Of a stretch of DNA of 23,492 nt, positions 19,248 to 21,449 are shown piece by piece. Both the position numbers and the translations under genes were made by a program. Under the pieces are notes generated by a model. That model worked only from the letters and a program-made list of their open reading frames with translations, was not told the origin of the DNA and did not search any database. The stretch's first letter is position 1. Each line of letters begins with the position of its first letter. Source of the DNA: Escherichia coli (GTDB taxonomy: Bacteria > Pseudomonadota > Gammaproteobacteria > Enterobacterales > Enterobacteriaceae); NCBI RefSeq assembly GCF_003334765.1, contig NZ_QOWT01000046.1; one strand, written 5' to 3'.

Positions 19248-19596
19248 TACAGGTATTTCACCGCGCACCGCAGTGCACTCAACCACGTCGAACCAAACCC
19301 TTTGGAATGAGCCTTTGAGTAGTCAGTTAGTGCTGGTGAGCCTTGACGGGCTGATCTCCTATGCAGCAAAGGTTCATCTCAAAGTAAGGCGAACGCTATG
19401 ACAAACCAAGATTCTATAGACCTATCTGATCTTCGTGGAATGGTCAGTTTTCCAGACAAAAGGTAATCACCATAGTCGTATGGCTATGAATCTTGTTGCT
19501 GCAGATAAGCATTTTGTGATTGAAGTGGTCAAATCTCTCAAATGCAGTAAAATGCAGTGCGCTATAATTCAATAACGGAGGGAGTAAGGAGAAGTC

Positions 19597-20217
19597 ATGA
19601 AAGATCAAGATGTTAGGTTCGCGGTGCATCATAAGCTTTTGAAAGAATCGCATTTAGATCCAGACTGCCTTGTGGTCGATGAATTTTCCATATCCCTTGG
19701 CGCCAGTAGAGCAGACATTGCTGTAATAAATGGTGTTATACACGGGTACGAGCTCAAAAGTGAATATGACTCTTTGGAGCGTTTGCCTCTTCAAATCAAG
19801 CATTATTCTTCTGTAATGGACAAGGTTACTCTTGTCGTAGCTGAGAAACATCTTGAGGGAGCATTAAAGTTAATCCCAGGTTGGTGGGGCGTTAAAACGG
19901 TTTCTGTTGGGCCAAAAGGCGCCATTCTTATAAAGCACATGCGTGGAGAAAAGCTTAATCGAAACCATGACACATTGATGCTCGCTCAATTGCTTTGGAA
20001 AGATGAATGTATCGACGTACTTGAACGATGGGGCTATTCCAAAGGAATCAAAAGCAAGCCCCGATTTGAGTTATGGAATATTATTGCGGAAAATATTCCA
20101 ATAGCGAATCTCAGGCTTGAAGTCAGAACAGCCTTAAAGAAACGCGTAGGCTGGAAAGTTAAGGCTTGGCAGGCTGAGTCTGCGCCAACCAATAAAGCTG
20201 TCTCACGACTAACGTAA
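19597..20217 (+). CDS. Cargo protein with PD-(D/E)xK nuclease-like motifs (206 aa)
   Basis: AAGGAG SD; own promoter-like TATAAT at 19563-19568 preceded by direct repeats AATGCAGT x2; motifs VVDEF...RADIAV...YELK; AT-rich; 3' end overlaps the convergent gene by 59 nt. Confidence 0.7.
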   Translation: MKDQDVRFAVHHKLLKESHLDPDCLVVDEFSISLGASRADIAVINGVIHGYELKSEYDSLERLPLQIKHYSSVMDKVTLVVAEKHLEGALKLIPGWWGVKTVSVGPKGAILIKHMRGEKLNRNHDTLMLAQLLWKDECIDVLERWGYSKGIKSKPRFELWNIIAENIPIANLRLEVRTALKKRVGWKVKAWQAESAPTNKAVSRLT

Positions 20218-21226
20218 TATGGTGCGTATGTGCAACTTTACGCCATTCTTTAGAGCCGCCAGATTTGTTAGCGCCTAATGATCTTTGGTAAATGTAATCA
20301 TCCCCCCAACTAAATTTGGAACCAAAGACTTGATACTCTGGCGAACTAACAAGGGTAGTACATAAGTTTTTAGTTTGGCCCCATCCATTTCCTTTAACTG
20401 CGGTACCTTTTACAAAGATCCATGAGGTATCGTTCGAATATCTCACTGAGACATACTGAGACATGAAGCGTGGGTCTACGCTCGTAATGGTAGAGCTAGC
20501 GGTGGGATAATCACTAAAACTTGGCGTTCTTCCATTGCTAAAATTCTGTACTACGTACATCCAAAGATCGTATTCATGGCGCGGAATATGATGAACTTGA
20601 TGTTGCGGTATCCCTGCCTGTGATGCTGGGTATGCGGTTGAAGATAAAATCAAGTTTCTCCACGGAGCTTGGCCTGATAATGTGTTGACCATGCTTAATG
20701 CTTGTTGTTTTAAACTATCAGTTGCGTTTTGAATATCTCCAAAATCAATGATTACATCAATTAAACTAGGATGAATATTTAAGTGGTTAACCAGACTTGT
20801 GAATTGGTGCCATGTCTGGGGGGTGATAGATATAGCGAGCCCATTGATTAAGTTGCGTTGAACAGCATGTATATAGTTTGTTGAATATGCGGGAGAAACA
20901 ACAGGGATAATTTCCTTACCATTTACTCTAGCATCTTGGATACACATATCTAGAGGATGATGGCGGCTCGAACCATGTTTATCTAAATATTTAACATCCA
21001 GCAAAACAGGACGATTGGCTTTCCAGGATGCCGCAAGGTTAATACCGAAGTCAGATAAGTAAGAACTCAAACTCTTCTTGTAGCATTCGTTTTCATAATC
21101 CCAGTCTATGTCTGGAATGGTAATGATCGGAGTAAAACCAGAGAGCGTAGTTTGATCTAAAAGCATCAGAGATTCATATTCAGCAGGCTTCCATTTCAGC
21201 TGTGGATAATATTGATGTTGACTCAT
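20159..21226 (-). CDS. Cargo protein (355 aa), partner of the PD-(D/E)xK gene; possibly sce7725/beta-protein-like
   Basis: AAGGAG SD 5 nt before the ATG at 21226; AT-rich; convergent with the preceding gene; family assignment is recollection only. Confidence 0.65.
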   Translation of the reverse strand: MSQHQYYPQLKWKPAEYESLMLLDQTTLSGFTPIITIPDIDWDYENECYKKSLSSYLSDFGINLAASWKANRPVLLDVKYLDKHGSSRHHPLDMCIQDARVNGKEIIPVVSPAYSTNYIHAVQRNLINGLAISITPQTWHQFTSLVNHLNIHPSLIDVIIDFGDIQNATDSLKQQALSMVNTLSGQAPWRNLILSSTAYPASQAGIPQHQVHHIPRHEYDLWMYVVQNFSNGRTPSFSDYPTASSTITSVDPRFMSQYVSVRYSNDTSWIFVKGTAVKGNGWGQTKNLCTTLVSSPEYQVFGSKFSWGDDYIYQRSLGANKSGGSKEWRKVAHTHHITLVVRQLYWLAQTQPAKP

Positions 21227-21449
21227 TAAAACTCCTTAAAATCTTTACTTATCCTAAGTATAGTGTTATGGCGTAACGCCAATTGTTTTTATACACTTGA
21301 AAACATTGGGAAAAGTTGAGCTATATCTAAATTTACAAAATTGGATGTTATAGAAATCGAGGTTTCAACTAGGCATGGAACTGCAAAATTTTTAATGCCT
21401 GCACGCGAAAGTCGTTGGCGGGTCCTTTCCGGTGATCCAGACCGTTACG

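Follow-up and report, generated by a model that had tools for sequence, protein, structure and literature searches.

In the 23,492-nt stretch of Escherichia coli DNA that was analysed (the window), a cassette of about 1.8 kb, spanning about 19505-21345, lies between the Rz/lysis genes and cos of a lambdoid prophage. It holds two intact, convergent genes: one encoding a 206-aa protein of the sce7726/P4-cII family (19597-20217, plus strand), the other a 355-aa Beta protein (20159-21226, minus strand). Coordinates, strands, lengths and the 59-nt overlap at the 3' ends, all given in a preliminary description of this DNA, were exact on recheck, and HMM E-values of 2e-54 and 9e-56 place both ORFs beyond chance as genuine genes. 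The strong Shine-Dalgarno sequences claimed there are AAGGAG in both cases, at 19586-91 on the plus strand and, as the reverse complement, at 21232-37 for the minus strand, each ending 5 nt before the ATG. The segment is AT-rich as described: successive GC fractions across 19501-21500 are 0.42, 0.43, 0.39 and 0.39, and the flanks stand at 0.52-0.53. The left boundary first proposed, 19250, turned out too generous: what remains of a P22-type rha gene (212 nt, plus strand, 86% identity to the 3' end of P22 rha) occupies 19190..19401, outside the cassette, which begins near 19505. Preceding the rha remnant is the Rz terminator hairpin, an inverted repeat at 19218-19245. In the right flank, the plus-strand cohesive-end sequence GGGCGGCGACCT at 21450..21461, which we take to be a lambda-type cos, is followed by a Nu1-like small terminase gene (21637-22185, from the ORF list and from the terminase annotated at the identical locus in NZ_CP024155).

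Both ends of the cassette are upstream regions. The left end (19505..19596, plus strand) comprises a promoter-like match of the scan, made up of a −35 TGGTCA at 19526-31 and a −10 TAAAAT at 19548-53, a second −10-like hexamer, TATAAT, at 19563-68, two copies of the direct repeat AAATGCAGT at 19540-58 and the Shine-Dalgarno sequence of the nuclease gene. The right end (21227..21345, minus strand) carries, beyond the Shine-Dalgarno sequence of the Beta gene, a 13-nt palindrome, TGGCGTAACGCCA, at 21269-81, where the scan called a plus-strand terminator-like site, a −10-like TATAAA at 21288-93 and a conserved box, TTAGATaTAGCTCA, at 21317-30. A consensus promoter scan returned 4 promoters against 5.7 expected from shuffles, and because of this lack of enrichment the hexamers alone do not count as evidence of a promoter. 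Comparison across genera is more telling: the block at about 19505-19596, repeat and TATAAT included, is conserved along with the module in loci of Klebsiella, Edwardsiella and Pectobacterium, which have unrelated sequence to the left of about 19505. Since the block travels with the module and the sequence farther out does not, a regulatory region of its own is supported. The block at about 21227-21345 upstream of Beta is likewise conserved with the module across genera, so that both genes of the cassette come with a conserved upstream region of their own. The promoter-like TATAAT and the direct repeats of the preliminary description are thus present, and lie within a conserved block.

The two encoded proteins

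Profile searches and structure prediction had been suggested as a check. The 206-aa protein scores 184.1 bits with the sce7726 model NF033832, whose cutoff is 70 (E=2.3e-54), over profile positions 1-182 of 184, and a confident predicted model matches PD-(D/E)xK nucleases. Its homologues all carry PF26915 Phage_P4_cII in precomputed annotations; the Pfam-A release that we searched held no model for the protein, PF26915 existing only in newer Pfam. As modelled, the protein opens with an N-terminal PD-(D/E)xK nuclease domain, which contains E29, D40 and E52-x-K54; a C-terminal domain of helices follows at about residues 126-182, and residues 192-206 form a disordered tail specific to the lineage. 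The acidic/ExK motif pointed out earlier is real, with E29, R38, D40, E52 and K54 invariant in 52 homologues, P4 cII among them, and the predicted fold makes the protein a PD-(D/E)xK nuclease whose catalytic motif is intact. Its alpha-beta-beta-beta-alpha-beta core, in which strand 2 bears the D and strand 3 the ExK, is shared with MmcB-like/DUF1052 proteins (PDB 3dnx, SPO1766), NucS, the Can2 nuclease domain and type II restriction enzymes. Unlike MmcB-like and other stand-alone PD-(D/E)xK nucleases, the 206-aa protein carries an additional helical domain at its C-terminus and is paired in the genome with a TIM-barrel protein. Neither protein family found a meaningful relative when its sequence profile was searched against the full set of PDB chains, hence no experimental structure can serve as a guide.

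The partner is a full-length PF14350 Beta_protein (i-Evalue 9.2e-56, query residues 6-342 on model positions 1-342 of 342), and an identical 355-aa protein is named 'beta family protein' in RefSeq. In its predicted fold, a TIM barrel is extended by helices at the C-terminus. Across the family the polar residues E16, D77, R133, D161, R216, D239, Y240, Y263, Q284, S306, D309, H335 and H336 are near-invariant, and D77, R133, D161 and D239 among them sit at the C-termini of strands in the modelled barrel; the model thus gives Beta a TIM barrel that carries conserved polar residues at its strand ends. The fold match is generic and no specific enzyme family is assignable; a Foldseek search against AFDB50 returned Beta-family members alone and no functional clue. 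The preliminary description had compared the pair with sce7726/sce7725, and half of this held: the 206-aa protein is indeed of the sce7726 family, but its partner is PF14350 Beta_protein and not sce7725. An NCBIfam search of the 355-aa protein gave a chance match to ndhI (0.11) and nothing else, and none of 10 diverse Beta relatives matched any NCBIfam model (E<=0.01). The NCBIfam sce7725/sce7726 pair, named after genes of Sorangium cellulosum So ce56, thus has its sce7726 member in common with the cassette and differs in the other; a Leptospira genomic island lists sce7725 and sce7726 proteins side by side.

Arrangement, carriage and relatives of the pair

The genes overlap antiparallel at 20159..20217, where 59 nt encode residues 188-206 of the nuclease on one strand and residues 337-355 of Beta, the end of its C-terminal helix in the model secondary structure, on the other. 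A terminator scan found no intrinsic terminator in the interval between the two stops or shortly past them. An inverted repeat whose arms flank the overlap (20135-48 / 20239-52) was weighed as a structural feature and then discounted, since it may have arisen by chance. In a synteny census seeded on the nuclease, and thereby biased toward nuclease-bearing loci, Beta and nuclease genes are convergent in 171 of 175 loci and, at species level, in 78 of 80; 76 of the 78 overlap, 72 of these 76 by a length of 2 mod 3. The distance from the conserved W186 codon of the nuclease to the conserved H336 codon of Beta is exactly 25 nt in 67/77 species-level loci from many bacterial phyla. A small sample seeded on Beta yielded three informative contigs, two of them with the convergent partner. 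The pair is present in Proteobacteria, Firmicutes, Actinobacteria, CPR bacteria and one archaeon, the Beta family alone comprising 2,447 clusters at 50% identity, and the convergent arrangement with overlapping 3' ends is fixed across phyla. An antiparallel overlap of identical spacing is a candidate case of regulation or linkage via dual coding. Some Beta genes are without a cII partner, and one sce7726 gene in the same prophage slot has no Beta gene within about 2.8 kb downstream.

Within E. coli, 126 of 5426 complete genomes (about 2%), from varied sources, carry the cassette intact and with at least 99% identity; IS1 lies inside it in two genomes. The surrounding prophage is defective in the window, with a terminase-tail fibre fusion ORF, an IS insertion and loss of morphogenesis genes. 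Related E. coli prophages hold different genes between lysis protein and small terminase, in agreement with the cargo slot between Rz and cos that had been assumed. A look into defence islands, also proposed beforehand, found the pair beside a type I R-M system in Edwardsiella and, in one locus, beside a Shedu SduA_C gene. Elsewhere it adjoins a prophage repressor (Acinetobacter) or a P2-like integrase (Vibrio), and it occurs in P4-like satellites, in phage Rac-SA53 and in Gordonia phage Powerball.

Among validated systems, PADLOC matched the 206-aa protein to 'cll' (4.3e-31) and the 355-aa protein weakly to 'beta' (3.5e-10), in line with the link to P4 that had been proposed. In P4 (NC_001609) cII is annotated as sce7726 family (27% identity to the 206-aa protein, BLASTP E=1e-18) and beta as Beta family; the latter is also 355 aa long and colinear with the cassette Beta (22% identity, BLASTP E=3e-7). 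As in the cassette, P4 beta and cII are convergent, and their site is again a variable cargo hotspot adjoining cos. The differences are equally plain: P4 is a satellite and the host of the cassette a lambdoid prophage, the divergence is large, P4 cII is longer at its C-terminus (264 against 206 aa), and P4 beta and cII are 27 nt apart with an annotated terminator where the cassette has its 59-nt overlap. Mutation of the cII terminator in P4 reportedly causes a temperature-sensitive phenotype via reduced beta expression. The cassette also has no gop, which in the P4 layout stands upstream of beta and co-directional with it, nor room for one: the minus strand holds no ORF of at least 20 aa between the Beta start (21226) and cos. 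With P4 Gop as the phmmer query, Gop was found in P4 alone among 11,601 ORFs of 175 loci, the window included, so that all 174 non-P4 loci are without it.

The second relative is PD-lambda-2 of E. coli ECOR42, which consists of a HigB-like A, an Xre-peptidase B and a Beta-like C component (Vassallo 2022). The 355-aa protein is closer to the PD-Lambda-2_C models of PADLOC (PDLC03984, 4.4e-32; PDLC03983, 2.2e-25) than to the P4 'beta' model, the match covering only its residues 141-344 (the C-terminal ~60%). ORFs for components A and B do not flank the cassette pair in the window. Conversely, the published PD-lambda-2 clone, three co-directional genes with ~390-bp flanks, worked without a complete cII-type nuclease gene, and the nuclease is therefore not universally needed for Beta-dependent defence. 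An all-against-all BLAST of neighbours identified a PD-lambda-2B-like gene (Xre-HTH plus Peptidase_M78) and DUF6932 as the one recurrent pair of third genes, in 25-27 of 78 species-level loci; the former lies directly upstream of Beta in 27/78. Other recurrent neighbour clusters proved to be shadow ORFs of these PD-lambda-2B-like/DUF6932 genes in GC-rich genomes. The general layout of the family is a variable upstream module followed by Beta facing cII, the upstream module being gop in P4, DUF6932 with Xre-peptidase in other loci and absent in this cassette.

Proposed function and competing explanations

On balance we favour reading the cassette as a horizontally acquired, two-gene minimal core of the gop-beta-cII / PD-lambda-2 family that would protect the lysogen from superinfecting phages, by exclusion or by abortive infection. 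We take the nuclease as the probable effector, which would degrade DNA, and Beta as its probable sensor or regulator: Beta might restrain the nuclease until a phage cue arrives, or might be an enzyme creating the substrate or signal for the nuclease. Judging from the gene geometry, convergent transcription with no terminator in between may couple the expression levels of the two genes, through transcriptional interference or a 3' RNA duplex. The cassette had been put forward as an uncharacterised defence candidate; the PADLOC matches to validated systems agree with defence, whereas 'uncharacterised' goes too far, because the three-gene relatives have published phage-defence phenotypes. The three-gene, P4-type gop-beta-cII protects against lambda and P1 (PMC9122126), its killing being triggered by phage orf184 (bioRxiv 10.1101/2023.04.06.535777), and in PD-lambda-2 the Beta homologue is dispensable for toxin neutralisation and required for defence (Vassallo 2022). 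Counting against the favoured reading, the known toxin of P4 is Gop, the very gene missing from the cassette. On the same side stand the PD-lambda-2 clone that worked without a complete cII gene, the weak 'beta' match and low identity to P4 beta, the generic barrel match, the unpaired Beta and sce7726 genes and the promoter hexamers that do not exceed the shuffles. Literature searches on sce7726, sce7725, PF14350, PF26915 and the system names gave incidental mentions, with no mechanistic study found among them.

That P4 Beta neutralises the toxin Gop (Rousset et al. 2022, citing Ghisotti 1990; PMC9122126) suggests another explanation, namely an addiction module akin to toxin-antitoxin systems, in which nuclease toxin and Beta neutraliser, or the reverse, stabilise the prophage or island and have no dedicated anti-phage role. 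The tight linkage of the pair on many kinds of mobile element, and its intactness in a prophage that has lost morphogenesis genes, fit such a role. We nevertheless hold it unlikely: a canonical type II module is a co-directional bicistronic operon with a small labile antitoxin, whereas the cassette genes are convergent, have their own upstream regions and encode large globular products, the putative neutraliser being a predicted 355-aa TIM barrel with enzyme-like conserved residues, and the requirement for Beta in PD-lambda-2 concerns defence and not neutralisation. We give similarly little weight to a function in the DNA transactions of the carrier phage itself, be it repair, recombination, modification or lysogeny control, with no attack on other phages. 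An example of this kind would be a TIM-barrel enzyme acting on DNA or nucleotides and paired with an MmcB-like repair nuclease; lysogeny control is the original meaning of the P4 name 'cII'. Least probable by far is a mere passenger role, the two genes decaying as inert cargo and doing nothing in present-day E. coli. The defective state of the surrounding prophage, the lineage-specific, read-through tail of the nuclease and the two IS1 insertions would suit decay, but both ORFs are full length and keep all family-invariant residues, both Shine-Dalgarno sequences and conserved upstream blocks are intact, and the cassette is nearly identical across the 126 genomes of varied origin.

A more far-reaching version of the immune reading is conceivable, though we regard it as rather doubtful. 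Here the Beta/cII pair would itself be a complete, ancient and widespread immune module to which gop and HigB/Xre-peptidase are optional add-on effectors, the overlap would be a functional switch and Beta a true enzyme. The phase-locked, dual-coded 3' overlap would then form an obligatory antisense or transcription-collision circuit setting the ratio of Beta to nuclease; an infecting phage, or prophage induction via late read-through on the nuclease strand, might tip this ratio and unleash the nuclease, and cleavage might be licensed by a small molecule or nucleic-acid mark that Beta makes or destroys.

Under the favoured reading of a two-gene minimal core, two experimentally validated systems now catalogued as unrelated three-gene systems, gop-beta-cII and PD-lambda-2, would have a core in common, a predicted Beta TIM barrel facing a PD-(D/E)xK nuclease, which in the cassette stands alone. 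If the annotation models for the two systems make gop, or components A and B, mandatory, pipelines that use them would pass over the cassette. The cassette would in turn offer a minimal two-gene, 1.8-kb E. coli system for dissecting the role of Beta, the residues to be mutated being D40, E52 and K54 in the nuclease and D77, R133, D161, D239, H335 and H336 in Beta.

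The convergent pair in the window

The nuclease gene (19597-20217, plus strand, 206 aa) and the Beta gene (20159-21226, minus strand, 355 aa) converge and overlap by 59 nt at their 3' ends, and here the ORF list agrees exactly with the preliminary description. The strong Shine-Dalgarno sequences described there were likewise found, with AAGGAG 5 nt before the ATG of both genes, as was the AT-rich character of the segment, GC content being 39-43% over the pair versus 52-53% in both flanks. The 206-aa protein, named "sce7726 family protein" by PGAP, scores 184 bits on NCBIfam NF033832 "sce7726 family" (cutoff 70) and matches the PADLOC "cll" model, derived from P4 gop-beta-cII, at 4e-31. 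It has a nuclease fold with the motif intact, followed by a separate helical domain (residues 126-182) and a disordered stretch (192-206), both as predicted by modelling. Its partner, the PGAP "beta family protein", is a full-length Pfam Beta_protein (PF14350, 9e-56) that in PADLOC matches PD-Lambda-2_C (4e-32) and "beta" (3.5e-10). It is predicted to form a TIM barrel with conserved polar residues, of which the near-invariant D77, R133, D161, R216 and D239/Y240 lie at or just past barrel strand ends and H335 and H336 in the last helix, an arrangement that would be the pattern expected for an active site. A search of the PDB for sequence relatives returned none for either family.

When the locus is aligned with relatives from Klebsiella, Edwardsiella, Pectobacterium and metagenomes, the upstream block of each gene is seen to travel with the module. 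Similarity is confined to the stretch from near 19505 to near 21345, the sequence on either side being unrelated, and these limits define a mobile unit of ~1.84 kb in which both genes keep a conserved 5' region of their own. The promoter-like TATAAT (19563-68) and the direct repeat AAATGCAGT, occurring twice (19540-58), are indeed present as described, but by themselves prove nothing, since a consensus promoter scan was not enriched over shuffled sequence. A terminator scan of the window predicted no intrinsic terminator in the interval between the two stops or immediately beyond them. Between a -10-like element and the Shine-Dalgarno sequence of Beta lies a perfect 13-nt palindrome, TGGCGTAACGCCA (21269-21281), with a T-run on the plus strand. 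It may serve Beta as an operator, or it may terminate plus-strand transcripts after antisense passage through all of Beta; it shows no conservation in the relatives from Klebsiella and Edwardsiella.

Conservation of the pair and of its overlap

Our nuclease-seeded survey comprised 175 loci, the window among them, drawn from viral contigs, from a set with one genome per species and from individual look-ups; HMMs for the two families were run on the ORFs of all six frames. Beta is convergent to the nuclease gene in 171; of the four exceptions, two are cut by the locus end and two are the same Xenorhabdus contig. The sole uncut locus lacking Beta, L098 from Xenorhabdus koppenhoeferi (4414-6810), carries its sce7726-family gene directly after Rz, as in the window, with no Beta gene within ~2.8 kb downstream and, on the same strand, a truncated protein-kinase-like ORF and a PP2C-like phosphatase ORF. 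At the species level the convergent pair is found in 78 of 80 genomes, spanning Gamma-, Alpha-, Beta- and Deltaproteobacteria, Firmicutes, Bifidobacterium, Dehalococcoidia, Elusimicrobiota, three candidate-phyla-radiation lineages and the archaeon Methanosuratincola.

The 3' ends overlap in 76 of these 78 pairs, by 4-110 nt (median 44), and the overlap length equals 2 mod 3 in 72 of the 76. Mapping conserved residues onto the DNA gives exactly 25 nt from the last base of the nuclease W186 codon to that of the Beta H336 codon in 67/77 loci, a spacing confirmed in the printed junctions of distant taxa. In this canonical layout the end of Beta (consensus ...NHHLTxVxxQLAxxxxP) is encoded opposite the nuclease ...LKxRxxWR end, and the spacing does not drift because the two conserved C-termini are dual-coded. 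The enterobacterial sub-clade that includes the window has a spacing of 64 nt (25 + 39, phase unchanged). The window's Klebsiella relative ends the nuclease at ...DWKVRV-TAG with an overlap of 11 nt; in E. coli TGG replaces this TAG and the frame continues for 16 codons, which lengthens the overlap to 59 nt and adds the disordered tail. The exact overlap length in the window is thus lineage-specific, and the tail-to-tail overlap itself is an ancient family trait. Isolated phages are arranged likewise: in Escherichia phage Rac-SA53 the overlap is 41 nt, between genes annotated "beta" and "CII phage-like protein", and in Gordonia phage Powerball it is 89 nt, between gp33 and gp32 "exonuclease".

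Relation to gop-beta-cII and PD-lambda-2

Phage P4 (NC_001609) carries gop (+), beta (+, 355 aa) and cII (-, 264 aa), the latter two annotated in RefSeq as "beta family protein" and "sce7726 family protein" and likewise convergent, separated there by a 27-nt gap with an annotated terminator. Both proteins of the window are colinear with their P4 counterparts, the 355-aa protein with beta (22% identity, E=3e-7) and the 206-aa protein with cII (27% identity, E=1e-18). The link to P4-type modules through an sce7726/sce7725 pair, drawn in the preliminary description, thus stands for the P4 association and for sce7726 membership, but the partner is Beta and gop is absent. The sce7725 label was rejected, neither the 355-aa protein nor ten other Beta proteins matching that NCBIfam family. 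A phmmer search for Gop over the collected loci found nothing outside P4, and the window has no ORF of at least 20 aa between the Beta start and cos.

Comparing neighbours within 2.5 kb all-against-all across the 78 loci uncovered one recurrent set and no other: DUF6932 and Xre-HTH/Peptidase_M78 proteins, directly upstream of and co-directional with Beta in 25-27 loci. In Brevundimonas nasdae (L125, 6519-8254) and 24-26 other species-level loci, the DUF6932 protein is weakly PADLOC PDC-M63A-like, the Xre-HTH/Peptidase_M78 protein matches PD-Lambda-2_B (1e-84), and the sce7726 nuclease faces them. Published PD-lambda-2 comprises a HigB-like A, an Xre-peptidase B and a "P4 antitoxin-like" C, the last needed for defence and dispensable for neutralising toxic B (Vassallo et al., PMC9519451); its first gene is thus a HigB-like toxin where these loci have DUF6932. 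The cloned PD-lambda-2 fragment with demonstrated defence activity has flanks of only ~390 bp and for that reason lacks a complete nuclease gene, and one Beta gene in a small Beta-seeded sample has no nuclease partner; Beta is evidently able to work with other partners. From the neighbour comparison we derive a family layout of nothing, gop, or DUF6932 plus Xre-peptidase, followed by Beta and the facing nuclease, of which the window represents the minimal form.

The cassette is not categorically new, as current family models recognise its genes and relatives have published defence phenotypes. The stand-alone, gop-less pair makes up two-thirds of the nuclease-seeded loci, and gop-beta-cII and PD-lambda-2 can be recognised as variations on one core. 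The literature searched holds no report of such a stand-alone pair, no description of the two systems as variants of one core, of the structural assignments or of the cross-phylum dual-coded overlap, and no mechanistic study of either family.

Proposed function and prophage setting

We consider it probable that the cassette, taken as a whole, is a defence or exclusion module. Gop-beta-cII protects against lambda and P1, with gop/beta viewed as a toxin-antitoxin pair (Rousset et al., PMC9122126), and a phage gene, orf184, is reported to trigger cell killing by it (preprint, bioRxiv 10.1101/2023.04.06.535777). The cassette would shield the lysogen from superinfecting phages. A division of labour with the nuclease as effector and Beta as regulator is perhaps the case, a more doubtful proposal in which Beta would control the nuclease or supply the cue and convergent transcription would link the expression levels of the two genes. 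The nuclease lies on the lambda late-operon strand, so that late transcription would read it in sense and Beta in antisense; speculatively, Q-antiterminated transcription after induction might act as a switch in this way. Rival readings are an addiction module, a role in DNA transactions of the phage itself, and inert cargo. Elsewhere the pair adjoins type I R-M genes, a Shedu SduA_C gene, prophage repressors, integrases, HicAB and hok/mok, and also occurs within P4-like satellites, company typical of defence or addiction cargo alike. Copies with at least 99% identity across 80% or more of the cassette occur in 126 of the 5,426 complete E. coli genomes, in every case on the chromosome.

The window derives from a lambdoid prophage of E. 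coli. The Rz-type lysis gene ends at 19180 and is followed by a hairpin terminator found by inverted-repeat search (19218-19245) and a remnant of the 3' end of a P22-type rha (19190-19401; 212 nt, 86% identity to P22 rha), which suggests that most of an earlier rha cargo was replaced by the cassette. To the right of both ORFs lies cos (GGGCGGCGACCT, 21450-21461), which we take to be the lambda cohesive-end sequence, and then a Nu1-like small terminase gene starting at 21637. The Rz-to-cos slot is variable, for related prophages with similar Rz and Nu1 carry other cargo in it: DUF6979, DUF1398 with YlcI/YnfO, PerC with YlcI/YnfO, Rha, or KilA-N. The rha remnant sits between the Rz terminator and the cassette, and a complete Rha or KilA-N occupies the slot in some related E. 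coli prophages. The ORF at 22115-22930 (+) is chimeric, residues 9-86 matching the terminase large subunit and 87-271 the tail-fibre C-terminus, and related genomes match the window up to 22373 and no further; the entire head and tail morphogenesis region is deleted, which renders the prophage defective. The cassette is intact despite this.

Two genomes, NZ_CM129638.1 (E. coli 1532MA, hit H15) and NZ_CM149886.1 (1532WA, H16), carry an IS1 in the stretch matched by the query 19190-21440: the match falls into two parts, and the annotated features it covers include an IS1 transposase. In the window itself, an IS transposase gene (5280-6260, +; phrog_3598, 4e-174) directly follows the O-like replication-initiator gene (4090-5067). 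Two adjacent plus-strand ORFs of 370 and 333 aa (6772-7884 and 7900-8901) correspond to phrog_17908 and phrog_16994, both function-unassigned PHROGs, and had no match in PADLOC. They stand in a second AT-rich stretch, where GC is 0.34-0.40, the window minimum, and may be a further cargo pair.
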